From Escherichia phage NJ01, in sequence record NC_018835.1: 64,000 bases of DNA. One strand, 5' to 3'. This document shows positions 39,413 to 56,573 of this stretch, piece after piece; the stretch's first letter is position 1; each line of letters starts with the position of its first letter. Both the position numbers and the translations under genes were made by a program. The notes under the pieces are model-generated. The model worked only from the letters and a program-made list of their open reading frames with translations. It did no database searches and was not told the origin of the DNA.

Positions 39413-40696
<1,284 letters not shown>

Positions 40697-43990: not shown

Positions 43991-44389
43991 TCATCGAATC
44001 ACCAGAGGCTCTTCAGAGTACACAGGAGCGGCTATTTCTACAGGAGGTGCTGCCCTAAGGTCATTAAGTCTTACACCCTTCAGCATCCCGTCTAGGTGAT
44101 CTTTCTTAGGGATTCCAACAGGGAAGTCGTCAATCCAAATATCTACAAAGAAACCTAGCTGACGACATACATCATCCTTCTGAACACCATTGCAAAAGAT
44201 GATAGGAATCTGCAAACACTCTGCATCAATCTTAATGTCGTGATTATCGTACCCATTAGGCTCTGCAAAGCGATAAGTTACAAAACGTACATCATAACCT
44301 TTGGCTTGCATTAATGCCACCACAGAGCGCCACAGCTTCTTATCTGAGGTGTAAGTATCATCGTAATCTAAACCAATATTCATATCCAA
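43991..44389 (-). CDS. HAD-like phosphatase / 5'(3')-deoxyribonucleotidase-like
   Basis: N-terminal GLDYDDT (DxDxT) and C-terminal WIDDFP. Confidence 0.4.
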   Translation of the reverse strand: MDMNIGLDYDDTYTSDKKLWRSVVALMQAKGYDVRFVTYRFAEPNGYDNHDIKIDAECLQIPIIFCNGVQKDDVCRQLGFFVDIWIDDFPVGIPKKDHLDGMLKGVRLNDLRAAPPVEIAAPVYSEEPLVIR

Positions 44390-44401
44390 ATCCTTTAGAC
44401 A

Positions 44402-44423
44402 AGAAAAGCCGCCCTAAGGCAGC
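44402..44423 (-). terminator. rho-independent terminator (minus strand)
   Basis: Minus strand GCTGCC-TTAG-GGCGGC (one G-U) followed by TTTTCTT. Confidence 0.4.
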
Positions 44424-44430
44424 TCTTTAT

Positions 44431-44607
44431 TTAGTCGGTCACTTTAGCTTCAAGTGCTTCATTTTCGATACTCAAGTCAATCACTACACCAGTAAGCTCA
44501 ACAACTGCTTGGCGAAGGGCATCTTTACCCATAGAGTGTACTTGAGTTAGGAAGAAAGCTTTACCTTCTTCGGTGGACAGGGTTTCTTTTAATTCAGAAG
44601 CAGTCAT
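44431..44607 (-). CDS. small protein (58 aa), below ORF-track size cutoff
   Basis: ATG at 44607 with AAGGAA RBS; translation MTASELKETLSTEEGKAFFLTQVHSMGKDALRQAVVELTGVVIDLSIENEALEAKVTD; terminator follows. Confidence 0.35.
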   Translation of the reverse strand: MTASELKETLSTEEGKAFFLTQVHSMGKDALRQAVVELTGVVIDLSIENEALEAKVTD

Positions 44608-44616
44608 TGATATTCC

Positions 44617-44811
44617 TTATGTTATGTTATAAATTCGCATGATTGTACCGCCATTGGCTTCAATAGCAGCAACCATTTGGTTTCGTTCTTCATCTGTGTA
44701 AACTAACACACTTCTAAACTCACCAGTTGCATCAGTATAAAGGATGTTGTATTTCGGAGGCGGCTTACGGTAGATACCTTCCATCATTCTTTCTCCTCTC
44801 GTTCTTTCCAC
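44617..44811 (-). CDS. hypothetical protein
   Basis: ORF track. Confidence 0.35.
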   Translation of the reverse strand: MERTRGERMMEGIYRKPPPKYNILYTDATGEFRSVLVYTDEERNQMVAAIEANGGTIMRIYNIT

Positions 44812-44967
44812 AGTTCAGCAAGTTCTAAATAAAACTCAGCTTCATCAGGACGTCCTTGTTCATTACAGATGGCGCTCTGACGATAACACCAATCCGATGG
44901 CATCTCTTCCACTTCAATCTCCTTGTTACGAACCAATCAATAAGAATAGTTCATTCGTCTTATTTAT

Positions 44968-45159
44968 TCACTCTACCAATGCAGGTACTTCTATCCTTTT
45001 AACTGTGAATGTCTTGTTTGGAAACTTTCGAACTAGCTCTGCTGCTTTGGTTATTGCTAAGTTCTCTGTCTCAAAGATACACAGTTGACCATTTAATGCT
45101 ACGAGAGTGGAGCCACCGCTGAAGACGGCCCAAGATTCATAATAACCTTTAACACTCAT
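44968..45159 (-). CDS. hypothetical protein
   Basis: ORF track. Confidence 0.35.
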   Translation of the reverse strand: MSVKGYYESWAVFSGGSTLVALNGQLCIFETENLAITKAAELVRKFPNKTFTVKRIEVPALVE

Positions 45160-45167
45160 ATTTTACC

Positions 45168-47012
45168 TTAGTGTGTATGCATCCAGTTAAGTCCAATCTG
45201 ACAATCAGATGCCAGAGGACATTCCATGTTCAAATACTCACCAGCTTTCTTAACGCAAAGCTCAGTGTGCTCTTTGAGTTTCTGTACATCATTACGATTC
45301 ACTGAGAACTGGCCCTCATCGTGCATGTCAATTACCTTCGCACAGCGAACTCCATCTTTCTCAATCCACTTGTTAAGGAACATCATAGCATATTTCATAA
45401 CAACAGCACCAGCGCATTGCAGGAGTGTGTTAAGAGCTTTATGAACCATAACCTTACCAGTGGCATCTCGTCTCATTGTAATCTTACGACCATCAACACC
45501 AATCAAGTATCCTTGAGCAGCTTTCTCTGTCATACGATCAATGAGGATTGCAATACATGGGTTCTCTGCCAAGAATCGTGCTCGCATCACTGAACCTTCG
45601 TCAGCCCCACCACCTACAATTGAACCGAGCTTAGCGTCACCAGCACCATAGTTGAATGCGTAGATAAACGTCTTAGCGTTGTCACGAGTAGGAAGACCAG
45701 CAAGTTTCTGGTTGTGGGAGTGAATATCACCTTCAAGGAGGATATCACGATACATAATAGCAGAAGCTAAACCACGCTCTGCCAGAGCTTTCTTAGCTGG
45801 ATTGTTCTCTTCAATTGCTTCAGCAAGCATATCCCTACACTCTTTAATGAGGTAGTGTGCAAGCATACGCAATTCTAATCCAGAACCATCATACCCTAAG
45901 AATACTTCTTTACCAGCGGGTATGTAATATTTGTAAGCACCTACAGGTTTATCTTTCTTCCCCGGCTTACCTTTCTCGTAAATTACGTTAGTACCTTTTC
46001 GTATATAACAACCATCAGGAACAACGTTAGTAATAACGAAAGGACGAGAGTGATCACCATCTGAGTTACAGTCAGACTCAAACAAACCGCGACACTCATG
46101 ACCAAACAAACCACGGGAGGGAATATTAACCACGATACGATGTTTGAATCGAAAAGTCGGCGTAGCACAGCTGTTAGCTTCTGCCGAAAGTTTACCATCT
46201 TCGCGTTCCTTTGCTATGAGTCCACTGATAAGACCTAGCCTGTGAGCCGCTACAACGCGTCTCTTAAGCAAACTTCCGACACTCCCTAGCTCACCCCCTA
46301 ACCCTTCTTCAAGAGTCTCCTCGAGGTTTGTAGGAGCTGTAGGCCACTTGTTTGAGGTAGCTAGTGCTATCTTAATCTCATCAAAAGTGATAGGTCTACG
46401 TCGGTTAGGATTTAAACCTAAACCAAATACATAAGCCTTCATGTAGTTCTTAGTTTTAAACCTAAAATGCTTCTCTAAGAACTTCCTAATATCAGCGTCA
46501 ACCATCTCGGCTGTCTGCTTCTGTTTAGCATTACCTCTCATCCAAGCTGAATACCACGCTTGGTATGTTCCATACTTTCGCATATCTTTCTTGATTTCAA
46601 AAGTATTCCAAGGTTTCTTTGATACGTTAAACTCTGGAGGAAGAAAACCCTCATCCATAAGGGCTTCTTTAACTCGTGCATCTTTCGATGGGTCAAAGTC
46701 CACGTATTCAACACAGGTGAATGCTCCACCAATGTCTTCTCTCTTAAGACCAACTCTATCACAATAGGCTTGAGGCCACTTCTGTAAAGCTCCAGACTTC
46801 TTAAATGGCTTCATATAAGTAGAGCCATCTAATCTCATCTTAGGTAAGAGAGGAATCAGTTCTTTGTCAATATTAACAATAATCTCTTTAAGGAGGTGAA
46901 CATACCACCGAGCATTTCTTCGGTTGAAACTCACTCCGTGCTTCGCTTGCTTAGAGATTATATCAGCGACAGTCATCTCTGTCAAAAATGGGAGAGCGTC
47001 CGGGTTGCTCAC
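45168..47012 (-). CDS. DNA polymerase, family A (T7 gp5-like), polymerase domain only
   Basis: Motif A YDGSGLELRMLAHY, motif B RDNAKTFIYAFNYGAG, motif C VIDMHDEGQF; no exonuclease motifs in this ORF. Confidence 0.85.
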   Translation of the reverse strand: MSNPDALPFLTEMTVADIISKQAKHGVSFNRRNARWYVHLLKEIIVNIDKELIPLLPKMRLDGSTYMKPFKKSGALQKWPQAYCDRVGLKREDIGGAFTCVEYVDFDPSKDARVKEALMDEGFLPPEFNVSKKPWNTFEIKKDMRKYGTYQAWYSAWMRGNAKQKQTAEMVDADIRKFLEKHFRFKTKNYMKAYVFGLGLNPNRRRPITFDEIKIALATSNKWPTAPTNLEETLEEGLGGELGSVGSLLKRRVVAAHRLGLISGLIAKEREDGKLSAEANSCATPTFRFKHRIVVNIPSRGLFGHECRGLFESDCNSDGDHSRPFVITNVVPDGCYIRKGTNVIYEKGKPGKKDKPVGAYKYYIPAGKEVFLGYDGSGLELRMLAHYLIKECRDMLAEAIEENNPAKKALAERGLASAIMYRDILLEGDIHSHNQKLAGLPTRDNAKTFIYAFNYGAGDAKLGSIVGGGADEGSVMRARFLAENPCIAILIDRMTEKAAQGYLIGVDGRKITMRRDATGKVMVHKALNTLLQCAGAVVMKYAMMFLNKWIEKDGVRCAKVIDMHDEGQFSVNRNDVQKLKEHTELCVKKAGEYLNMECPLASDCQIGLNWMHTH

Positions 47013-47028
47013 TTTATACTCCTTTAAA

Positions 47029-47451
47029 TTATTGGTAAATCAAATCCGTAAATGCTTGATTGTCTTCTATCACATCTAACACGGTAGCTTCATAACTGTA
47101 AGCCCTAACCGCCCCGTTAACAACTATCCGAGGAGTAGGTGGAGGTGGTGCATGGTTAGCCCTAGCTTCACGAGGTTGCTCTCGTACTAGATGAGCCACA
47201 ACCCTTTGGTTGGCGACCTCTTCTCTTTCTCGGATAGCTCTCTGGATGTAAGCCAACTTCATACCCCAAGCTTCTTCAAACTCTTGAGGGTGCTTATCAC
47301 TGATAACCACATACTGACGTTCAGGGATACCAGAGCGAATCTCTGATAATAGCTCATGGAACAAATCCAGTTCATGTTCAGTGAGATTCATTTCGATATC
47401 ATCCCACTTGAGAACTAAGAAACGGTTTTGGTGTCTAGCTGGTAATGGCAT
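47029..47451 (-). CDS. hypothetical protein (140 aa)
   Basis: ORF track. Confidence 0.4.
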   Translation of the reverse strand: MPLPARHQNRFLVLKWDDIEMNLTEHELDLFHELLSEIRSGIPERQYVVISDKHPQEFEEAWGMKLAYIQRAIREREEVANQRVVAHLVREQPREARANHAPPPPTPRIVVNGAVRAYSYEATVLDVIEDNQAFTDLIYQ

Positions 47452-47614
47452 TCTACTCCACCTCTACTCTAACGTAAGTTCTCTCGCCAACATCATCTTT
47501 CCAGACCCATGCCTTGGCATCTTCTTCAGACTTAAAAGCTTTCACAACGCTGTATCCACCTTCCCATTCATCACCGAACCAGCGCTGTCCTACGTAAACA
47601 TATTCTTTCATTAT

Positions 47615-47890
47615 TTAACCTTTTGGGAATGGCATTAAAGATTCCATAGCAGATTTAATTTCGCTATTGATTCGAGCATCTCGATAAGAGATAAACTTAC
47701 CTTTGCTATCTCGTAACATCACATGGGTTCTAGCTGTTACGTGGGGAAGTAATGTAATACTAGTTGGGATAGTGTCAATCCCTACAGAAAATTTGTCAAT
47801 AGTCTTGCTTTCACTTAACAGATAAGACCAAGTTTGCTTCGGATGGTTAGGGTATGTGTCTCGAATTTGAACCATAGCTAACTTATTCAT
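47615..47890 (-). CDS. small protein, member of tandem paralog pair
   Basis: Shares GKFISY...E...PFPKG with next gene. Confidence 0.45.
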   Translation of the reverse strand: MNKLAMVQIRDTYPNHPKQTWSYLLSESKTIDKFSVGIDTIPTSITLLPHVTARTHVMLRDSKGKFISYRDARINSEIKSAMESLMPFPKG

Positions 47891-47891
47891 A

Positions 47892-48143
47892 TTAAACTCC
47901 TTTAGGGAATGGGATGAGGTTTTCTACTGCAACACGGAACTCTTTCTCTACGTTTTTATTCTTATAAGAAATGAATTTACCATCAGCCCCACGGAGGATT
48001 ACGTTAGTACGAGCTGTTTTTGGGTTATGACCAATCTGGTTTGCAATAATATTAGCAATGCCGTGGTTATTGGTAAATTTCCATTTAACCATACGATTGT
48101 TAGACATTACATCAATGATATTTACAGATTTTACAATAGACAT
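47892..48143 (-). CDS. small protein, member of tandem paralog pair
   Basis: LRGADGKFISYKNKNVEKEFRVAVENLIPFPKGV vs LRDSKGKFISYRDARINSEIKSAMESLMPFPKG. Confidence 0.45.
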   Translation of the reverse strand: MSIVKSVNIIDVMSNNRMVKWKFTNNHGIANIIANQIGHNPKTARTNVILRGADGKFISYKNKNVEKEFRVAVENLIPFPKGV

Positions 48144-48177
48144 ATTTATTACCTAAGAAGTTTAATTTGGTTTATAT

Positions 48178-48206
48178 AAAAGAAAAGGCCACCCATTTGG
48201 GTAGCC
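48178..48206 (-). terminator. rho-independent terminator (minus strand)
   Basis: Minus strand GGCTACCC-AAAT-GGGTGGCC followed by TTTTCTTTT. Confidence 0.45.
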
Positions 48207-48211
48207 TTATA

Positions 48212-48529
48212 TTACGATGAGCTTAAAGCTCCTTTTCGTGCTCCAGCCGCTTTTCCAGCTCGATCACCACTTTTGCCGCCGTTTGAACGGTTTGAGCTGA
48301 CTGATTCAACACGTAAGTTGCTTGACGCATTAGAGCCTCCAGACTTGACAGCTCGTTTGTGTCCAACATCTTTACCTCTGACAGCAGCTTTTCCATCGCG
48401 CTTTTCAACGATGCGACGTGCACGGTGGCGCTGAGCATCTCCGCTCTTGCTACCAATTCCCGTTTCACCACGGGCAATTGCGGTACGTCTTTCTTGTGCA
48501 TAATCTCTCTTTCCTACATGGTCTGCCAT
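48212..48529 (-). CDS. basic low-complexity protein (105 aa)
   Basis: ATG at 48529 with AAGGAG RBS at 6-nt spacing; TAATGTATA element 37 nt upstream. Confidence 0.45.
   Translation of the reverse strand: MADHVGKRDYAQERRTAIARGETGIGSKSGDAQRHRARRIVEKRDGKAAVRGKDVGHKRAVKSGGSNASSNLRVESVSSNRSNGGKSGDRAGKAAGARKGALSSS
48223..48501 (-). CDS. alternative-frame ORF (92 aa, helical) fully inside 48212..48529
   Basis: Own ATG with AGGAAAG upstream; which frame is expressed is unresolved. Confidence 0.3.
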   Translation of the reverse strand: MHKKDVPQLPVVKRELVARAEMLSATVHVASLKSAMEKLLSEVKMLDTNELSSLEALMRQATYVLNQSAQTVQTAAKVVIELEKRLEHEKEL

Positions 48530-48565
48530 TTAGAACTCCTTAATATATCAGTATACACTAAGGAG

Positions 48566-48574
48566 TATACATTA
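48566..48574 (-). promoter_or_regulatory. TAATGTATA promoter-like element (minus strand)
   Basis: + strand TATACATTA between PhoH stop and next gene start. Confidence 0.45.
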
Positions 48575-48585
48575 TAAGTTACTGT

Positions 48586-49323
48586 TTAAGCTTTCTTTTC
48601 CATTGCTTTAACAATCGCCTTACAGAAACCAGAACGAACAATGTCATCTGATTCCCCATCTACTATCTCAGCGAACTCATACAGATCATGTTCATCAATA
48701 AAGTTAGTAGCCCAAGTAAGACCACTCTCACGACCACGCATATCATGCTGGTTAGTATCACCCATGCAGAACAGCTGAGAGGTCTCTCCCAATCGAGTCA
48801 TGATTGAGAAGGCTTCATCTTTAGTGGTGTTCTGGAACTCATCTACGATAACAATAGCATCATTGAAAGAACGACCACGGAGATACTCCAGAGGTACGAA
48901 CTCAATATTACTGTTACCGAGCTGGCATTCATAGAACCCTTTACCATATCGCTGAGTAATAACATCAATGATAGGCATCAAATATGGTTCAAACTTCTCA
49001 CGCATCCCTCCCGGAAGCAACCCAAGAGAATTACCCATGCCGACCGAAGGGCGACTCAAGATAATCTTCTGAATCTTACCACTCTTCAGTGCATCGATAA
49101 CCGTGGAAGTGATTACAAAGGTCTTACCACAGCCCGCAGGAGCGTCTGTGAACACAACTTGTTTAGTCTTGATAGCATTGAGCAGTTCAGACTGGAACTG
49201 GTTCTGAGGGACTACAGGCTTTGCTAAAACCACCTCTTCAAACTCGCGCTTACCCTTACGAGTGACAAGTGCTTCCCGACGAAGGTCTTTCCGTGATTCT
49301 TTCCGTGATTGACGACGACTCAT
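48586..49323 (-). CDS. phoH: PhoH-like ATPase
   Basis: Walker A TDAPAGCGKTFV, Walker B-like IVIVDEFQN. Confidence 0.75.
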   Translation of the reverse strand: MSRRQSRKESRKDLRREALVTRKGKREFEEVVLAKPVVPQNQFQSELLNAIKTKQVVFTDAPAGCGKTFVITSTVIDALKSGKIQKIILSRPSVGMGNSLGLLPGGMREKFEPYLMPIIDVITQRYGKGFYECQLGNSNIEFVPLEYLRGRSFNDAIVIVDEFQNTTKDEAFSIMTRLGETSQLFCMGDTNQHDMRGRESGLTWATNFIDEHDLYEFAEIVDGESDDIVRSGFCKAIVKAMEKKA

Positions 49324-49532
49324 TTACGCTCTCCAATTTCTTCGTAATGACATTCAGTAGTTAAACAATCTTTACAGATTGCTGTATAAACCCTGACGTT
49401 AGTAAATCGTTTGTTCTTCCCTTTGGTTGGAGAGCCTTTGGCAAGCTCTCTGATAACCTTGTTACTTAAATGAAGGTTTGTCCCTTCACATCTAGAGCAC
49501 TTCACCACAATGTCCATTCGGTAAGAGACCAC
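49320..49532 (-). CDS. zinc-ribbon protein (70 aa)
   Basis: CSRCEG...CKDCLTTEC paired CxxC. Confidence 0.4.
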   Translation of the reverse strand: MVSYRMDIVVKCSRCEGTNLHLSNKVIRELAKGSPTKGKNKRFTNVRVYTAICKDCLTTECHYEEIGERK

Positions 49533-49702
49533 AGAGAGTCACCTATGTGGGCATTGTCATTCCTGATGAGGTCTTTGATTTTATCAACATCAGTTAAGTG
49601 AGTCACATTCAAAATATCCTCAACATCTGGGGCATATTTAAATATGGCAACAATACTGTTGTGATCTTCAGCATATCTTTCTAGAACATAAACTACGCTC
49701 AT
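49502..49702 (-). CDS. hypothetical protein
   Basis: ORF track. Confidence 0.35.
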   Translation of the reverse strand: MSVVYVLERYAEDHNSIVAIFKYAPDVEDILNVTHLTDVDKIKDLIRNDNAHIGDSLWSLTEWTLW

Positions 49703-50022
49703 GCGAAGTTAACCTCTTTATGAAGTCTGTAAACAGCTGTCGCCATACAAGCAACAGCTTCGTTATGTGGGAGATGCATCCCTGTAGAACCATCCCAATC
49801 TTTGAACTCATTGTCAAAGACTCCGGTAGGCTCTGGATACAAGGCTTGCAACTCAACCAAATCGTTAGCAACTTGTTGCCATTTATCATCAGACCAGATA
49901 GGGTCATCCAACCAGTAATACAAATAGGAATGGATGATCAATTGCCTTCTGTGCCGATTAATTACTTCAGCGGGACTTATCTCACTTCCATTTGAAGTCC
50001 TAAATGTATTACTGTCAATCAT
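49699..50022 (-). CDS. small protein resembling NAD-dependent DNA ligase N-terminal (Ia) domain
   Basis: HSYLYYWLDDPIWSDDKWQQVANDLVELQALYPE vs LigA [29 protein letters not shown]. Confidence 0.35.
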   Translation of the reverse strand: MIDSNTFRTSNGSEISPAEVINRHRRQLIIHSYLYYWLDDPIWSDDKWQQVANDLVELQALYPEPTGVFDNEFKDWDGSTGMHLPHNEAVACMATAVYRLHKEVNFA

Positions 50023-50267
50023 TTCACAACCTTAAATTTGAATGTTGTTGGGTGATAATAATGCAACCTGTTAATGGTGTGCTTTGTTTCAAGATATATC
50101 CTACAAGAGTGACACATCACATGATTCAGACCAGTTACAGGATTAGGTTTAAAGTTGGCGATAGGCTTCTCTTTCTTACAGAAGCTACAGACTTTCTTTT
50201 CCATCTTTTCTCCAGTGGTCAACGAACTGCTGAAACACTTTACGGTCAAATGTGAAATTACGAGCAA
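50019..50267 (-). CDS. small zinc-finger protein (start uncertain)
   Basis: CSFCKK...CHSC motif; probable start at internal MEKKV. Confidence 0.35.
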   Translation of the reverse strand: MLVISHLTVKCFSSSLTTGEKMEKKVCSFCKKEKPIANFKPNPVTGLNHVMCHSCRIYLETKHTINRLHYYHPTTFKFKVVK

Positions 50268-50418
50268 TTCCGCATTCTCTAAAAGTGGCAGGCATATAAT
50301 CTACATCACCTTCAGATGTATGACCATAGACTTGAATAAGCTTCTTAATCTTATCCTTCTCTCTTCGAGGAAGCATTCTAAATGCCTCCTGAATATCTGT
50401 AATATGTTTTATCTTCAT
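50185..50418 (-). CDS. hypothetical protein
   Basis: ORF track. Confidence 0.35.
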   Translation of the reverse strand: MKIKHITDIQEAFRMLPRREKDKIKKLIQVYGHTSEGDVDYMPATFRECGIARNFTFDRKVFQQFVDHWRKDGKESL

Positions 50419-50564
50419 CAGAAATTCCTGCTAATCCTCTGAGTTGTGGGAACAGCAATATTCACATACTCCACAACAAGGGCAAATTTCTACACTTGGG
50501 TCATATGCATCATCAACTGTCATCCCACACTTGGTGCAGAACACATCATCATCTTCTTCCAATA

Positions 50565-51221
50565 TTAACTCTCCAAAGTTTTCTTCAGAGCTGCCCACGA
50601 GATTGGGTAGAGTTTAGCCATCTCTTCATCCAGAGATTGAGCAAACACTCGAACTTCATACTGAGCATGGGAGGATAGTCGCTGACGACACAACTCAAAC
50701 CAGCCATACAAAGAACCAGTCCACACCCACTCAGTGATCATTCCCTGAGGAAGAACAAATCGGGCTTGTTCTGGTGCAACGAATTCAATCAACTTGTCAT
50801 ATGCTGCTAGAGAAGCTTCATATGCATCGTTAATCAACATTAATGCTTCAGCTCGTTCTCCATCGATGAGTTGAACCCCTGAACCTGCATGGAGGTCCGA
50901 AGGTCTCGCAAAAATCTCTTTAGGGATGAAGACTTCAACTGCTCCATCTTTATACCGCCGGGACATTTCGTTCCACGAGAATCCAACCTGATGCTTGCCC
51001 AACTGTCTCGCAATTGCGATAGGTGCTTTGCATCGGAAACTGACTTGTGGGTGTCGGAATGGAGTAACATGCTTCTCTCTTGCGAGGAAGTTGATGAGAC
51101 GTTCATCACGTTCATTTAAATCACCTTCACGGGTTACGCCAAAGGAAACTCGAGCTGCGTTTACTACGCTACGATCACTTCCCATAGCTTCGATTAATGT
51201 TGCTTGTAATTGTTCATTCAT
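50565..51221 (-). CDS. thyX: flavin-dependent thymidylate synthase (ThyX)
   Basis: ARQLGKHQVGFSWNEMSRRY matches the ThyX RHR-x7-S-x-NE-x-S-x-RY signature. Confidence 0.7.
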   Translation of the reverse strand: MNEQLQATLIEAMGSDRSVVNAARVSFGVTREGDLNERDERLINFLAREKHVTPFRHPQVSFRCKAPIAIARQLGKHQVGFSWNEMSRRYKDGAVEVFIPKEIFARPSDLHAGSGVQLIDGERAEALMLINDAYEASLAAYDKLIEFVAPEQARFVLPQGMITEWVWTGSLYGWFELCRQRLSSHAQYEVRVFAQSLDEEMAKLYPISWAALKKTLES

Positions 51222-51236
51222 CCGTGAATTTCCTTA

Positions 51237-51446
51237 TTAATATTCTTTTACATAATAAACCACTAAGGTTCCCATCTCTGACAATGTTGATTTATGTAAG
51301 CTTACTTTACTATAAATCTTTGGGGCCATCTTAAGAGCCTTCTTAAAACGGCGAGCATCTTTACGAGTAGCAAAGTGCTCTGTAACAGGTATAGCCGGGT
51401 CTTGGTAGAGGTAATATACCACCGTCCAATATTTTTTCATAATCAA
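51237..51446 (-). CDS. small protein, member of four-copy paralog family
   Basis: Shares TRKDARRFKK core and C-terminal Tyr with 53300..53915 trio. Confidence 0.45.
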   Translation of the reverse strand: MIMKKYWTVVYYLYQDPAIPVTEHFATRKDARRFKKALKMAPKIYSKVSLHKSTLSEMGTLVVYYVKEY

Positions 51447-51715
51447 ACACCTAGGGCAGTAGTTAAGAATGCTTTCAGGTTTGCTTCGGTCTGCATACCA
51501 GAGAGACTATAGTGTGCACCACTATTACGGTCAGGTACAACGAAAGCAGGGATGCTTCTTACACCATACTTAACAGCTTGTTCACGACCATCACCTTCAA
51601 GGATGTTAATCTCTTCTACTTCTACATCGAACTCCTTAACAACCTTCTCAAAGGTAGGAGCCATTGCTTTACATGGAGCACACTGATCACTATAAAACTT
51701 AATCACTTTAGACAT
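51443..51715 (-). CDS. thioredoxin-family protein (start moved to ATG at 51715)
   Basis: CAPC active site (FYSDQCAPCK), cis-Pro region RSIPAF. Confidence 0.65.
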   Translation of the reverse strand: MSKVIKFYSDQCAPCKAMAPTFEKVVKEFDVEVEEINILEGDGREQAVKYGVRSIPAFVVPDRNSGAHYSLSGMQTEANLKAFLTTALGV

Positions 51716-51716
51716 T

Positions 51717-51893
51717 CTATTCCTTGTTAATAAACAGGTTGATATGACGTTGGGTAGCAGGAACAACAATAAAAGATTTATACTGACCTTTTGCTAAGTC
51801 ATGAGCAATCTTCTTTGTCTGACCAAGACCCATCACACAGCCACTAACAATAATGGCGTGTGCTTGCAACTCTTCAGGGAGTTTTAGTTTCAT
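51717..51893 (-). CDS. small protein (58 aa), below ORF-track size cutoff
   Basis: ATG at 51893 with AAGGAA upstream; stop overlaps thioredoxin start (TAGAATG). Confidence 0.3.
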   Translation of the reverse strand: MKLKLPEELQAHAIIVSGCVMGLGQTKKIAHDLAKGQYKSFIVVPATQRHINLFINKE

Positions 51894-51905
51894 TCTTCAG
51901 GTTCC

Positions 51906-52091
51906 TTACAGCATAGCAAGAATGATAATAAGAGGTAATGTTATAGCGAAATTAATAAGAACAGCGCTGCCTAGCTTGATAGCTTTAACATCCTCTTCTG
52001 ATGGGTTTTCTTTAATTGCTAAATTTCGAGCTTTATATATAACAGTACCAATTATTAACGACCACACGGCCCACACAATCAGTGAAATCAT
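51906..52091 (-). CDS. small two-TM membrane protein
   Basis: MISLIVWAVWSLIIGTVIY...INFAITLPLIIILAML. Confidence 0.45.
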   Translation of the reverse strand: MISLIVWAVWSLIIGTVIYKARNLAIKENPSEEDVKAIKLGSAVLINFAITLPLIIILAML

Positions 52092-52100
52092 ATCAAACCC

Positions 52101-52280
52101 TTATGCAGTCAGGAGGTGAAGCAGGAATGGGATAACAACAGCTACGACAACCATGATGGTTGATGCTGTTTGAATCTCACCTTTCTTGTCAGGGGTTTCT
52201 TCAATAAGCTTGCCAGAAGCCCAATAGATACCACCACCAATAAAGACAGCCCAAATACCCCATACGATTGCTGATAACAT
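52101..52280 (-). CDS. small two-TM membrane protein, paralog of 51906..52091
   Basis: Translation MLSAIVWGIWAVFIGGGIYWASGKLIEETPDKKGEIQTASTIMVVVAVVIPFLLHLLTA; track ORF 52142..52396 is another frame. Confidence 0.45.
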   Translation of the reverse strand: MLSAIVWGIWAVFIGGGIYWASGKLIEETPDKKGEIQTASTIMVVVAVVIPFLLHLLTA

Positions 52281-52341
52281 ATATCTATATCCTTATAAAT
52301 AAGTTCGCCCCACCTCGGGTTAGGAGACAGGGCGGAGGTTT

Positions 52342-52953
52342 TTAGTAAGACACATCGCCACTTGAGTGGGACATGTTGCTCTTGACGAAGTAGCAATACT
52401 TGCCAAGACCTTCATTAATTTCTTGAAGCATACTCTGATCAACTGGATAAGTGGCTAAATCACCATCAAACTCATCCATCTTCTCAATAATACACATCAA
52501 GGTCATGCACATATCAGAGAGCATACCGTCCATATCTAGGTCAGCATTACCCTCTGAGAACCAAGCATGGGAGAGATAATTGGCTGCTGTGGCGTCCACT
52601 TTAACACAGTGGTAACGCATACGTTCAGCAATACGATCTCCTACTTGTCGTGCGTAATCTTCCAGCTCATCAAACATACCATGAACACCCTGAAATCCTG
52701 CACCAGAGACGTTCCAATGGTAGTTTTTAGCTTTGATATGCAAGAGTTCCATGTTAGCTTGTAAGCAGCTCAGGATGTGTTCTAGGCTGTTTCCACTAAT
52801 CATACCCTGCATTGTTTCAAGGCGAGAGATTGAAAGCTCGGACCGATCTAACATATTGTATTCGACACGACCAATCTCGGGTAAGTCAAAGACATTCTTA
52901 TGCATTTGGGTTTTCTCCATCAAGTTCAACTGAGTTAGCAACATTACGTGCAA
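52342..52953 (-). CDS. Dps / ferritin-like protein (start uncertain)
   Basis: HIKAKNYHWNVSGAGFQGVHGMFDELEDYARQVGDRIAERM matches Dps ferroxidase helix pair. Confidence 0.6.
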   Translation of the reverse strand: MHVMLLTQLNLMEKTQMHKNVFDLPEIGRVEYNMLDRSELSISRLETMQGMISGNSLEHILSCLQANMELLHIKAKNYHWNVSGAGFQGVHGMFDELEDYARQVGDRIAERMRYHCVKVDATAANYLSHAWFSEGNADLDMDGMLSDMCMTLMCIIEKMDEFDGDLATYPVDQSMLQEINEGLGKYCYFVKSNMSHSSGDVSY

Positions 52954-53227
52954 TATTATCCATTACCTGCTGGGTAATTACGATGCAGTTCTGCGGGTCT
53001 ACTGACTTAGAACGCCCCATTTCAGGGTCATACACCTTAACTCGCTTAGCAGTTGAACCTGTAACCTGAAGAACCTTCAACAGATATCCCTGATTACCAA
53101 TAGACCAAGCAACAACATCACGATTCTTGATAAAGCGACCAAGCATATCACGATGATAAAACTGTTGCATCACCTTGGATTTTGTAATCTCTTCAGTGGG
53201 CGGGGCCACTTTACTCAAATCTAACAT
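52898..53227 (-). CDS. hypothetical protein (109 aa)
   Basis: ORF track; overlaps annotated Dps start. Confidence 0.4.
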   Translation of the reverse strand: MLDLSKVAPPTEEITKSKVMQQFYHRDMLGRFIKNRDVVAWSIGNQGYLLKVLQVTGSTAKRVKVYDPEMGRSKSVDPQNCIVITQQVMDNIARNVANSVELDGENPNA

Positions 53228-53266
53228 AACTCTCTCCTGTAAAATACAAATTCTTATTGTACTCTA

Positions 53267-53275
53267 TATACATTT
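53267..53275 (-). promoter_or_regulatory. variant AAATGTATA element (minus strand)
   Basis: + strand TATACATTT, 40 nt upstream of gene start at 53227. Confidence 0.3.
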
Positions 53276-53299
53276 GAGAGTTACCATATCTACTACCAA

Positions 53300-53509
53300 T
53301 CAGTAATAAATTACTTTAGACATAAAAGAACCCGAGTTAGGGTCTTCGTACCAGCGATGTATATCAGCGCTTTTTACTATTGTGCCCAGAGTCTTCAACT
53401 GTTTCTTAGCAATACGAGCCTCTTTGCGAGTGTCAAACAATTTGATGCTATCTTTTCTCGTGTGTTGATCAAGATCCCAAACAACACGAATCGCCCACAT
53501 CTTTTTCAT
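53300..53509 (-). CDS. small protein, paralog family member
   Basis: W.IRV...TRKEARIAKKQLK...Y-COOH pattern. Confidence 0.5.
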   Translation of the reverse strand: MKKMWAIRVVWDLDQHTRKDSIKLFDTRKEARIAKKQLKTLGTIVKSADIHRWYEDPNSGSFMSKVIYY

Positions 53510-53718
53510 TAGTAATGTACCTTTCCGCTGATATAAACACGACCAGAAGAATACTCCTTGGCCTTATGGATACTGATACTATTGACCACGTCACCAGTAA
53601 GCATAGTCTTTTTAAAATCTCGAGCCTGTTGACGAGTAGGAAGTGCAGTCATAGTCATACCACCTGATGCCCACTTAATCTTTGCTAACCAAAACTGTCT
53701 CATAGTGATTGGTCTCAT
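53509..53718 (-). CDS. small protein, paralog family member
   Basis: TRQQARDFKK core, C-terminal HY; start/stop overlap with neighbours. Confidence 0.5.
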   Translation of the reverse strand: MRPITMRQFWLAKIKWASGGMTMTALPTRQQARDFKKTMLTGDVVNSISIHKAKEYSSGRVYISGKVHY

Positions 53719-53915
53719 TAATAATAAACCTTGCTGTTGGCAAAAAGAGCACCTTCGTTATTCACAATAGCTTTTCCTATTGTAACCTTATTGAGTCTAA
53801 AAGTAGACTTGTATTGGTTTTTGACCCTACGGGCGTGTTCTCGAGTATTAACAAAATCTACAGCTACTAACTCTCCAGTCGTGTTATCATGTACACGAAC
53901 AATCCACTTTTTCAT
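53718..53915 (-). CDS. small protein, paralog family member
   Basis: TREHARRVKNQYK core, C-terminal YY. Confidence 0.5.
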   Translation of the reverse strand: MKKWIVRVHDNTTGELVAVDFVNTREHARRVKNQYKSTFRLNKVTIGKAIVNNEGALFANSKVYY

Positions 53916-54118
53916 TTTACTAAACCCTTCATAAAGTTATAAAGATCATTAGAGGCTTTACCCCATTCAAGGTGCTTCTTATCCATATAGCTCTTACATG
54001 CTTCTTTACTACTTTCGACGCATATATCAAATTGATGACATGCTCGACCAAATGTCATAGCTTTTAATTGAACCTCGGTAGTCAAACCTTTCAGTTCTTG
54101 GAACTCTTCTTCAGTCAT
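53912..54118 (-). CDS. hypothetical protein (68 aa)
   Basis: ORF track. Confidence 0.4.
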   Translation of the reverse strand: MTEEEFQELKGLTTEVQLKAMTFGRACHQFDICVESSKEACKSYMDKKHLEWGKASNDLYNFMKGLVK

Positions 54119-54652
54119 TTACACACCCTTAGATGCAACAACACCTTCAGAGTTATTATAACGACCCTTCACTGCATAGGAATGTTCCCCTGCATGAGAG
54201 TGCTCAAACATCACCATCTGACCAACACGCATACCAGCACGAACTCGTAAGCTATGATGCTTGGTTACGTTGTGGAATTCAAACGTCAGCTTACTGCTAT
54301 TAAATCCAGCATCAGCCCATCCAGCATGTAGGTGGTTCAAACCACAACGAGCCATAGATGAACGAAGAACAAACAGGCTTGAGATATTATCTGGAAGATT
54401 AAACTCCTCCATGGAGTGAGCCAAGAAGAACTGACCCGGAGTGATAACCAAACCCTCTTCAGGAATCTTTACTTCCTTCCACTGAAGATTTTCTTTCGCA
54501 TCAATATCAACGATGCCATCAGCCTGTTCTTCAACAAGGATAGTATCACCAATACGGATATCCACACTAGCAGCGTTAACATACTTATGCTCCGCATCCA
54601 GATAGCCATTGTCAATTACATCGTGCAGTTCAACACTTCCTAGTAAACTCAT
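54119..54652 (-). CDS. dcd: dCTP deaminase (dUTPase superfamily)
   Basis: LRSSMARCGLNHLHAGWADAGFNS matches the dcd SSxARxGL...GxxDxGF motif. Confidence 0.7.
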   Translation of the reverse strand: MSLLGSVELHDVIDNGYLDAEHKYVNAASVDIRIGDTILVEEQADGIVDIDAKENLQWKEVKIPEEGLVITPGQFFLAHSMEEFNLPDNISSLFVLRSSMARCGLNHLHAGWADAGFNSSKLTFEFHNVTKHHSLRVRAGMRVGQMVMFEHSHAGEHSYAVKGRYNNSEGVVASKGV

Positions 54653-54661
54653 TCTTATTCC

Positions 54662-56017
54662 TTAGTTATTTGTTTCCATGTCAAAAGAGATTCCACGACC
54701 CGCTTCATCGGCAAACCGAACTGTACGGGTTTGAGGCTGCAATACTTCAGGGTTATCAGCAACAAAGCGATCAGCGAGACTGCGGCTGACGGTCTCAGCT
54801 AATTCACCATGAGAAGGGATATTAAGATCGGCGAGATTATCAACCACATCTTGGGCCACGTCTTCATCAGTCCATACAGCCCTAACAGGTGCGTTGAAAC
54901 TCTGACCAGAGAACTGGTGACGGCTAACAGTCAAACCATTTGATTGACCATTAGAACGTCTAGACAACCACTGCTCAAATGAATCGCCAGTAACACCAAG
55001 AGCTTCTTCAAAAGATGTTCTACGAGTAGAGCTTAGATTTCGTGCTTCGTTTGCTCGACGTCTTGCAGGGGCTACAAACACCCCTTCAACTGCATTGTGC
55101 CGATTAGGTTCATCTTCTCGACCAAGGAGATCTCCTCCTGTATTAGTTGTTAAGTTTGTTAACCCTTCAGACCAATACGCATGAATTCGGCTAGAGCCAT
55201 GAAGACTTGACATTAACTGAATCTCTTCGTAAGGTATACCAAAGAATAGACTCATGTCTCGGTCAACACAATACGAGGGACTTGTCGTATCCTCAACATA
55301 AGTAACCTGACCCCGTTCATCGACCAGATGATTAATCGGTTGAGGTGTAGGGAGGTATCGAGAGTGGGCCATATATTGATATGCAACAGATGGAGCTGAG
55401 AATCTTAACACTTGTGAATTAGGCCACTTTTTGTGAACGTATCTGATTTCACGACTAGAAACAACCACAGGGCAAGGAGCGGTCATAGCTAAATATCCAT
55501 GAGGAGTCATGAATAGGTTGTCAAGAGTCATCGCACCACGGCACATCATAGGAAAATTATCCAATACCTCTTCAATAGAAGTAGGATAATTAAACATGAA
55601 TTGAATGCGGGTTCCATTCCACTGAAACTCAATAATATCAGTGAATGTTAATTGAGAACCCCCAGCATATGATTCGTTTGTAGCTTCAGCAAGAAGGGAT
55701 GCATACTCGATATCTTGTGATTCAAGCCACTCTTTCACATTGCTTTCAATCTCTCGTCCAAGAGCTTGCCAATGATCAACTGTAGTGAAAGTATTTTGAG
55801 TCCCTGGCGTCTGTCCTCTGACAACGAAGATATCAATATCGTGAGGTGCTATGTTATTAAGCACGGCATCACGAACAGCCCCACCAGTAATGATAGGGCA
55901 AATGCCGTCTGGAATCAAGTTGTTGTTAATCAACTGTTCAATGAAGTGACGACCAACAGTGATATCAGGTTGTTGAGCAACCTTATCTTCAATTTGGTTA
56001 ATCGGGATAACAATCAT
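54662..56017 (-). CDS. Pol-beta-superfamily nucleotidyltransferase with CCA-adding-enzyme-like head domain
   Basis: ITGGAVRDAVL...PHDIDIF (GGxVRD ... DxD) near N-terminus after start at 56017 (MIVIPINQ); long C-terminal region without recognised motifs. Confidence 0.5.
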   Translation of the reverse strand: MIVIPINQIEDKVAQQPDITVGRHFIEQLINNNLIPDGICPIITGGAVRDAVLNNIAPHDIDIFVVRGQTPGTQNTFTTVDHWQALGREIESNVKEWLESQDIEYASLLAEATNESYAGGSQLTFTDIIEFQWNGTRIQFMFNYPTSIEEVLDNFPMMCRGAMTLDNLFMTPHGYLAMTAPCPVVVSSREIRYVHKKWPNSQVLRFSAPSVAYQYMAHSRYLPTPQPINHLVDERGQVTYVEDTTSPSYCVDRDMSLFFGIPYEEIQLMSSLHGSSRIHAYWSEGLTNLTTNTGGDLLGREDEPNRHNAVEGVFVAPARRRANEARNLSSTRRTSFEEALGVTGDSFEQWLSRRSNGQSNGLTVSRHQFSGQSFNAPVRAVWTDEDVAQDVVDNLADLNIPSHGELAETVSRSLADRFVADNPEVLQPQTRTVRFADEAGRGISFDMETNN

Positions 56018-56018
56018 T

Positions 56019-56573
56019 TTACATTTTCCAATATAATGAAGGTGGGTCGTAAGGGTCAAATCCCGTGAGTTCACACAAGTATTTATAAACCTTAACGGTT
56101 AAGTTAACGTCCTGTTCACAGTAAGTAAACATATCTTCAGTGAAAGCATCCCATGCTTCCTCTTGCTCACCGTAGTCTCCTTTAAGTTCCTCTAAGAACT
56201 CACCCCATTGCTTCAAACCATGACCTCTTGGGCCATGTCTAGGGTCACCTTTCGGATACTCAGGACTGTCACCAATACGGTCAGGTTTAAGATATCGACT
56301 AAGACACAAGGTGTCGAAGACGTTAAAACGATAGTCGATCAGATTGGGATACATCTTCTTCAGAGCACAAAGGTCGAAGTCAATAATATTATGACCTACG
56401 AGCACATCAGCTTCTGTAAGTTTACGAATCCCATCTTCAATTTGGTGAGGCCGATAGCCCCACCTTTCACCAGTTTCAACATCGAAGATGTAAATACACC
56501 ACACTTTAGTTATGTCATCGTACAGTGCATTACTCTCGATATCAAATGCAAACACTTTCTTTTTCTTTACCAC
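56019..56573 (-). CDS. 3'-5' proofreading exonuclease, T7 gp5 N-terminal-domain-like, as a separate gene
   Basis: Exo I FDIESNAL, Exo II HNIIDFD, Exo III YCEQDV; collinear with T7 DNAP N-terminus ([15 protein letters not shown]). Confidence 0.8.

Follow-up and report, generated by a model that had tools for sequence, protein, structure and literature searches.

In the genome of Escherichia phage NJ01 (NC_018835.1) a small thioredoxin gene lies in the same region as a T7-like DNA polymerase, and the question is what the phage uses this thioredoxin for. E. coli thioredoxin (TrxA) bound to T7 gp5 renders the T7 DNA polymerase processive. The first-pass annotation of the 64,000 nucleotides analysed here, referred to as the window throughout, had proposed that the phage-encoded protein might replace the host factor. 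Both the gene, which is conserved in the phiEco32-like (Kuravirus) phages of E. coli, and this hypothesis are already known: thioredoxin was listed among the genes common to all C3 phages (Mirzaei et al. 2014), and its coupling to the T7-like polymerase for processivity was hypothesised for this phage group (Corban & Ramsey 2021). We add a residue-level map of the shortened thioredoxin-binding domain (TBD), the prediction that the whole thumb extension is ordered, and a comparative pattern, with relatives that carry non-orthologous redoxins and LUZ24-like phages that have no thioredoxin, which speaks for a catalytic redox role. The features discussed are collected in Table 1.

Table 1. Features of the thioredoxin and polymerase region, in coordinates of the window.
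Feature	Coordinates	Strand	Evidence and remarks
T7-like family A DNA polymerase, polymerase-domain subunit, 614 aa	45168..47012	-	Pfam DNA_pol_A; T7 gp5 match; AlphaFold2 (AF2); Foldseek
Thumb insertion 2, polymerase residues 128-237, ~110 aa, mostly helical	46302..46631	-	after helix H1; alignments, AF2
Thumb insertion 1, polymerase residues 57-110, 54 aa	46683..46844	-	opposite T7 262-338 (77 aa); hhalign, MAFFT
ThyX flavin-dependent thymidylate synthase	50565..51221	-	two genes downstream of thioredoxin; Pfam Thy1 E 1.4e-43
Thioredoxin-family gene, 90 aa	51443..51715	-	CAPC = residues 12-15; cis-Pro loop 'RSIPA'; ORF and translation, Pfam, PDB, PHROG
Shine-Dalgarno AAGGA	51721..51725	-	5 nt upstream of thioredoxin ATG; read from the sequence
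Dps/ferritin-like 'DNA-binding protein'	52342..52905	-	Pfam Ferritin, NCBIfam Dps, phrog_3636; ferroxidase motif intact
109-aa conserved protein, phrog_10984, no cysteines	52898..53227	-	always adjoins Dps-like gene (synteny)
dCTP deaminase	54119..54652	-	Pfam DCD E 3.5e-34
3'-5' exonuclease subunit of split polymerase, 184 aa	56019..56573	-	Pfam DNA_pol_A_exo1 E 1.1e-8; 172-1 annotation 'DNA polymerase exonuclease subunit'
T7 gp4-like primase-helicase	56567..58357	-	Pfam DnaB_C and Toprim_2; annotation

The thioredoxin gene was read on the minus strand from an ATG at 51715 to a stop at 51443-51445, and its product of 90 amino acids starts with MSKVIKFYSDQCAPCKAMAP (full sequence: MSKVIKFYSDQCAPCKAMAPTFEKVVKEFDVEVEEINILEGDGREQAVKYGVRSIPAFVVPDRNSGAHYSLSGMQTEANLKAFLTTALGV). 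An upstream ORF of 58 aa stops at 51717-51719, 1 nt ahead of the thioredoxin ATG, and the ATG of the downstream ORF follows 2 nt past the thioredoxin stop; the gene is thus part of a tightly packed operon. The call of a CAPC thioredoxin in the first-pass annotation was borne out by the ORF itself, by Pfam Thioredoxin PF00085 (residues 4-85, E 2.5e-13, 50.3 bits with a cutoff of 23.5), by PHROG phrog_22 'thioredoxin domain' (E 1.9e-12) and by thioredoxins of the PDB, including E. coli TrxA of the T7 complex (1skr_B, E 1.7e-7, query 4-86 versus TrxA 24-105). The loop 'RSIPA' was aligned with E. coli R73-G74-I75-P76-T77. All orthologs, down to ~40% identity, carried a CxPC (CAPC, CSPC or CVPC) together with the cis-Pro loop. 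The models for canonical bacterial TrxA equivalogs were not reached, neither TIGR01068 (49 bits, cutoff 96.8) nor NF006898 (34.8, cutoff 138). Compared to TrxA, the phage protein has QCAPC for WCGPC, a Lys at the Asp26 position and no N-terminal beta1-alpha1 unit (~20 aa). The E. coli TrxA sequence used for this residue comparison agrees with the coordinates of the PDB alignment. N-terminal truncation is reported to be common to most phage thioredoxins (Tahan, Shitrit & Lindell, bioRxiv 10.1101/2025.10.05.680603). Using a relative with 78% amino-acid identity, a dN/dS of ~0.11 was obtained, with dS near saturation, next to 0.12 for ThyX and 0.08 for the polymerase. The value of ~0.11 indicates that the thioredoxin gene is under purifying selection. 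A pseudogene or relic was rejected on account of this dN/dS and the invariant CxPC. In the Kuravirus SU10 the orthologous thioredoxin was seen by mass spectrometry with 52.8% coverage (Mirzaei et al. 2014).

Along its entire length, the interval 44000-58500 of the window shares 97.8% identity with Escherichia phage 172-1 (NC_028903; Kuravirus, Gordonclarkvirinae; 77,266 bp); matches to this interval were obtained in 119 phiEco32-like records. The coordinates of the window and NC_028903 are offset by ~+2,885, and the ~13 kb of genome beyond the window were covered through the 172-1 reference. No ribonucleotide reductase (RNR) had been visible to the first-pass annotation, which named an RNR elsewhere in the genome as the alternative explanation for the thioredoxin. 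The absence holds for the window and equally for the complete genome of 172-1: none is annotated in the full 77 kb, NrdA, NrdB, NrdD and NrdG from relatives gave no tblastn match in the window or in 172-1, and a Pfam scan of the remaining large unassigned ORFs returned no RNR family. As the genome has no RNR, a role of the thioredoxin as reductant of a phage-encoded RNR was rejected for it. The placement of thioredoxin and polymerase in the same module was correct only loosely; both are located in the same region, but the polymerase lies 4.4 kb downstream of the thioredoxin gene and the exonuclease 4.3 kb upstream of it. The exonuclease gene adjoins the gp4-like primase-helicase gene. By synteny among C3 phages, the most constant neighbours of the thioredoxin are the Dps-like ferroxidase, linked to it in all C3-morphotype relatives examined, and the cysteine-free protein of ~90-110 aa. 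A function of the 109-aa neighbour as redox substrate was rejected, since it has no cysteines. In GAP52 and Privateer the dCTP deaminase gene directly precedes that of the thioredoxin.

The polymerase is T7-like in the sense that T7 gp5 is its nearest solved relative, as found by sequence (E 6e-33), by hhalign (probability 100%, E 3.8e-56, T7 residues 206-704) and by Foldseek of the AF2 model, for which the top matches were all T7 gp5 (E 5e-26); the model, built from an 87-sequence alignment, had a mean pLDDT of 93.2. That description was, however, incomplete, as the enzyme is split into an exonuclease and a polymerase gene located 9 kb apart. Alignment to T7 gp5 by hhalign, the check which had been proposed for the thumb, revealed insertion 1 between helices H and H1, the exact site of the T7 TBD. 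Its 54 aa exceed the length of at least 50 aa by which a TBD is recognised (Czernecki et al. 2023, PMC10201439), but are 23 aa fewer than in T7. The strand FTCVEY corresponds to T7 YTPVEH, which touches I75/R73 of thioredoxin, with T7 P325, T327, V329 and E330 facing A97 (Pro in the clade consensus), T99, V101 and E102. Insertion 1 has no counterpart for T7 Y265, 272-278, 285-292 and 315-321 (including R318/E319, K285, R288 and K290), and one of the four T7 loop-B lysines K299, K300, K302 and K304 is kept. On the thioredoxin side, the equivalents of R73, I75, P76 and G92 are kept, while those of W31 and K90 are lost.

Insertion 2 has no T7 counterpart, and a shorter version of it occurs in LUZ24-like polymerases. 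In the AF2 models insertion 1 formed ordered strands (59-66 and 98-104) and a helix (78-87), and both insertions folded into one ordered domain without a partner (pLDDT ~90-98, ~92 as typical value), in the full protein and the isolated thumb alike. This predicted order suggests an autonomous thumb which may be intrinsically processive. Fold searches with the thumb matched nothing beyond PolA thumbs and members of this polymerase's own clade, with no structural match outside the clade for insertion 2; the longest thumb fold alignment, 128 residues, was to T7 gp5.

For the distribution of both proteins, tblastn identified the thioredoxin in 125 phage records, comprising Kuravirus-like Escherichia/Shigella phages, Salmonella 7-11-like phages, C3 podophages of Cronobacter and Proteus, and a few N4-like and crAss-like phages. 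Identity was 96-100% within Kuravirus and ~40-47% to Grimontviridae over the aligned part. The polymerase clade amounted to 255 records and also takes in 106 Pseudomonas LUZ24/PaP3-like phages (~40% identity), Aeromonas Lahexavirus (50%) and Vibrio phages. The MAFFT alignment showed insertion 1 to be complete in the LUZ24/PaP3-like polymerases. PaP3 itself lacks a thioredoxin-fold ORF, an RNR and genes of nucleotide metabolism, and other relatives contain non-orthologous redoxins, so that the thioredoxin gene does not track the TBD-bearing polymerase across genomes. These small redoxins, encoded in the same module, have CGPC, CPKC, CSFC (a glutaredoxin) and CVNC sites, and two of them are found beside NrdAB. 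In Lahexavirus LAh_8 a thioredoxin-like gene (76 aa, CVNC) is situated two genes from NrdA-NrdB and away from the Dps cluster, and one metagenomic relative (L096) has a glutaredoxin directly upstream of NrdA-NrdB. Of two further metagenomic relatives, one (L095) encodes a 70-aa CGPC redoxin and the other (L097) a CPKC redoxin of 78 aa whose gene immediately follows that of the exonuclease. Among the C3 phages the thioredoxin is accompanied by NrdAB in Privateer, by NrdDG only in GAP52 and L099, and by no RNR in Kuravirus and 7-11; L099 has the Kuravirus gene order, with 2.8 kb between NrdDG and the thioredoxin gene. A locus search with the thioredoxin alone yielded only 4 near-identical Kuravirus loci, and a protein homolog search only 15 close relatives. 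The locus search with the polymerase alignment returned mostly generic environmental T7-like polymerases matched in palm and fingers only; no thioredoxin-HMM match was obtained in these environmental loci, but the loci are short.

With moderate confidence we favour the reading that the phage thioredoxin is a redox-active auxiliary protein which acts catalytically, in dNTP supply or redox protection; its activity, reductant and targets we infer. The protein is produced along with the operon of middle genes for replication and nucleotide metabolism; it would be kept reduced by host thioredoxin reductase and NADPH and would hand electrons to disulfide-dependent enzymes. Given the lack of a phage RNR, its foremost candidate target would be the host class Ia ribonucleotide reductase NrdAB, the enzyme that feeds the pathway of phage dCTP deaminase, ThyX and dNMP kinase. 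A possible second role would be thiol/peroxide protection together with the adjacent Dps-like protein. The Pfam, PDB and PHROG family assignments, the invariant CxPC and the low dN/dS support such a putative redox function, as does the expression of the orthologous protein in SU10. Further support comes from the gene neighbourhood, in that the gene invariably has the Dps-like gene beside it and nucleotide-metabolism genes (dCTP deaminase, ThyX) around it, and from the NrdDG genes near the thioredoxin in L099. By analogy, the thioredoxin of cyanophage Syn5 also lends support; it has redox activity and enhances genome replication, and RNR reduction is the role preferred by its authors (Tahan, Shitrit & Lindell, bioRxiv 10.1101/2025.10.05.680603). 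The non-orthologous redoxins of the relatives would be expected if any disulfide reductase serves, and unexpected for a shape-specific polymerase subunit.

The main weakness of the catalytic redox role is that Kuravirus and Salmonella phage 7-11 retain the thioredoxin without an RNR, which leaves host NrdAB or some other protein as the target. Class III NrdDG, judged by its T4 and E. coli homologs, uses formate and not thioredoxin. With RNR-less Kuravirus and 7-11 on the one hand and NrdDG-only GAP52 and L099 on the other, the thioredoxin cannot have a phage RNR as its conserved partner. It also counts against this role that E. coli NrdAB is already served by abundant Trx1, Trx2 and Grx1. Finally, the non-canonical features of the protein (QCAPC, Lys at Asp26, a TIGR01068 score of 49 versus 96.8) make its efficient reduction by TrxB an assumption.

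According to the processivity hypothesis, the phage thioredoxin would bind the 54-aa TBD equivalent at the thumb tip, close the thumb over the duplex and free replication from host TrxA. We consider this unlikely. Both of its premises, the thumb insertion and the genome without RNR, are true, so that neither of the two grounds for refutation named in the first-pass annotation applies, and among solved structures the polymerase is nearest to T7 gp5; nevertheless, the comparisons mildly disfavour the mechanism. Insertion 1 is located at the exact H/H1 site and aligned to T7 262-338, and the T7 contact strand is matched by A97 (or the consensus Pro), T99, V101 and E102, but it is 23 aa shorter and has no counterparts of Y265, R318/E319, the 272-290 loop and three of the four loop-B lysines. 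Likewise, the conserved R73, I75, P76 and G92 equivalents of the thioredoxin stand against the loss of W31 and K90, and the E330 equivalent is a Trp in Grimontviridae while the Arg73 equivalent stays, so that no covariation is seen. That AF2 joins both insertions into a single ordered domain without a partner also speaks against a thumb in need of thioredoxin. Thioredoxin and this polymerase do occur together in all C3 podophages, with or without RNR. Against this, insertion 1 is kept in the ~106 LUZ24-like Pseudomonas records, PaP3 being devoid of a thioredoxin-fold ORF, Lahexavirus with its 50% identical polymerase has the thioredoxin-like gene by NrdAB, and the redoxins in the polymerase clade are non-orthologous. 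Modelling of other phages points in the same direction: AF3 put the host thioredoxin on the Syn5 polymerase and rejected the phage one (Tahan, Shitrit & Lindell, bioRxiv 10.1101/2025.10.05.680603), and AF2 did not dock host thioredoxin on split polymerases with a half-length TBD (Czernecki et al. 2023, PMC10201439). A literature search for Kuravirus and trxA host-factor data found nothing relevant.

A more specific proposal, in which the thioredoxin would be a dedicated third subunit of a split replicase (exonuclease, polymerase and thioredoxin) that docks on the 54-aa TBD via the FTCVEY strand, seems quite unlikely to us. If true, the virus would have internalised the T7-type dependence on a host factor, and the retention of the thioredoxin in RNR-less Kuravirus and 7-11 would be explained. 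A polymerase clamp of this kind would represent the first virus-encoded version of the T7/host-thioredoxin processivity mechanism and would offer biotechnology a self-contained three-part replicase.

Rather improbable, too, though a plausible variant of the redox role, is the explanation that thioredoxin, the adjacent Dps-like ferroxidase and the 109-aa protein together limit peroxide/Fenton damage to replicating phage DNA. The linkage of these three genes is kept in Kuravirus, L099, L100, 7-11, GAP52 and Privateer whereas the genes around them are rearranged, but it could merely reflect a shared middle-gene operon, and in Lahexavirus the homolog of the 109-aa protein and Dps stay together as a pair without the thioredoxin-like gene. 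The intact ferroxidase motif of Dps argues for protection, as does the abundance of thioredoxin and Dps-like protein in the SU10 proteome (52.8% and 35.8% coverage). ThyX, encoded two genes from the thioredoxin, has an NADPH-oxidase side reaction that yields H2O2, which may matter for such a module. On the other hand, the 109-aa protein is without cysteines, and we know of no biochemical coupling between Dps and thioredoxin, which counts against the proposal. That the thioredoxin is a dispensable leftover of an ancestral RNR partnership in the RNR-less Kuraviruses would agree with close relatives having NrdDG or NrdAB nearby and with a 98-aa NrdD ATP-cone ORF being all that 7-11 and Privateer retain, but is highly improbable in view of the strong purifying selection on a gene with invariant CxPC, its presence in more than 100 sequenced Kuravirus-like genomes and the expression of the protein in SU10.

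In comparison with known systems, the closest counterparts are the orthologs of other C3 podophages, which represent the same gene in the same operon context: those of phiEco32, SU10 (CDS65), Privateer (QIN94863), 7-11 (AEK81994) and GAP52 (gp050). The phiEco32 ortholog is annotated as 'thiol-disulfide isomerase and thioredoxin', that of 172-1 only as 'hypothetical protein'. T4 NrdC thioredoxin and the glutaredoxin/NrdH-type redoxins beside phage NrdAB, exemplified here by L096 and LAh_8, constitute a known type of phage redoxin. The Kuravirus protein resembles them as a small phage CxxC redoxin in a nucleotide-metabolism module, but its genome has no phage RNR to reduce. With T7 gp5 and E. 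coli thioredoxin (PDB 1T7P) the Kuravirus system shares the T7-like polymerase, the H/H1 insertion, the FTxVEY/YTPVEH strand and the R73/I75/P76/G92 equivalents of thioredoxin. In contrast to T7, the Kuravirus polymerase is split, its insertion comprises 54 instead of 77 aa and is ordered in AF2, and an extra insertion of ~110 aa is present, while the thioredoxin is phage-encoded, N-terminally truncated and carries QCAPC instead of WCGPC. Cyanophage Syn5 likewise combines an N-terminally truncated phage thioredoxin in a replication cluster with a T7-like polymerase, and the same two hypotheses were weighed for it; however, Syn5 has its own RNR and a CGPC site, and its thioredoxin has been studied by experiment. 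A TBD of 50 aa or more is noted for only ~29% of the T7-like PolAs (Czernecki et al. 2023, PMC10201439). The S-SBP1-like PolAs, too, are split between an exonuclease and a polymerase gene and have a shortened TBD, and the phiKMV-like PolAs have an extra ordered insertion after helix H1, at the same position as insertion 2 but unrelated to it (Czernecki et al. 2023, PMC10201439). Different from both groups, the exonuclease and polymerase genes of Kuravirus are non-adjacent, and the two types of thumb insertion are united in one enzyme.

In all C3 podophages examined, the thioredoxin and the Dps-like ferroxidase were found linked to a small protein (phrog_10984, about 90-110 aa) that lacks cysteines (52342-53227 with 51443-51715 in the window; related loci L004, L005, L006, L099 and L100). 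In Aeromonas phage LAh_8, unlike in these phages, only the pairing of the small protein with Dps was kept. In Salmonella phage 7-11 and in Proteus phage Privateer, all that is kept of NrdD is an ORF of about 98 aa that covers its N-terminal part (ATP cone) and adjoins Dps. Full NrdD-NrdG was observed in GAP52 and in a Kuravirus-like contig (L099). This pattern suggests either loss of the class III ribonucleotide reductase in the lineage or a stand-alone ATP-cone regulator.

Four paralogous ORFs encode products of 65-69 aa that have in common MKK-W at the N-terminus, the motif TR..AR..K in the centre and Tyr at the C-terminus, and pairwise BLASTP among them yielded E values of 2e-6 to 0.03. The one searched against the PHROG families, immediately downstream of the thioredoxin gene, matched phrog_4939. 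A tandem pair of other paralogues (59-61 aa) lies between the Dps-like and thioredoxin genes, and the hydrophobic segments at the N- and C-terminal ends of both products suggest two transmembrane helices in each.

Features of the window and of related loci
Feature	Position	Strand	Remark
Small paralogue 1	51237-51440	-	
Small paralogue 2	53300-53509	-	tandem array of three
Small paralogue 3	53509-53718	-	tandem array of three
Small paralogue 4	53718-53915	-	tandem array of three
Tandem pair	51906-52091, 52101-52280	-	
Polymerase gene (family A)	45168-47012	-	split from exonuclease gene
Thumb insertion 2	46302-46631		residues 128-237
Exonuclease gene	56019-56573	-	
470-aa ORF	54662-56074	-	
NrdD ATP-cone ORF, 7-11	L005 11292-11591		
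NrdD ATP-cone ORF, Privateer	L004 10034-10330		
NrdD-NrdG	L099 13122-15945		
T7-type RNA polymerase	L097 20518-21830		beside NrdDG

The exonuclease and polymerase genes of the split enzyme are separated by about 9 kb with roughly 25 ORFs in the gap. In some Kuravirus relatives (L007, L008, L010) the polymerase gene was found additionally broken up (454 + 159 aa or 564 + 50 aa); insertion of endonuclease genes is the presumed cause. The second thumb insertion, about 110 aa after helix H1, was predicted as mostly helical in a high-confidence model, and the structure search gave no matches outside its own polymerase clade. This insertion is shorter in LUZ24-like polymerases than in those of Kuravirus, Grimontviridae and Lahexavirus. 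It could act as an intrinsic processivity domain or as a partner-binding domain. Between the exonuclease and dCTP deaminase genes, a 470-aa ORF, whose listed start overlaps the exonuclease ORF end, showed a weak match (E 0.003) to the poly(A) polymerase/CCA-adding head domain as its sole match; relatives carry the annotation "nucleotidyltransferase".

A 91-kb metagenomic relative of the same polymerase clade (L097) encodes a single-subunit T7-type RNA polymerase (PF00940), instead of which Kuraviruses possess a phage sigma factor (39792-40436 in the window).
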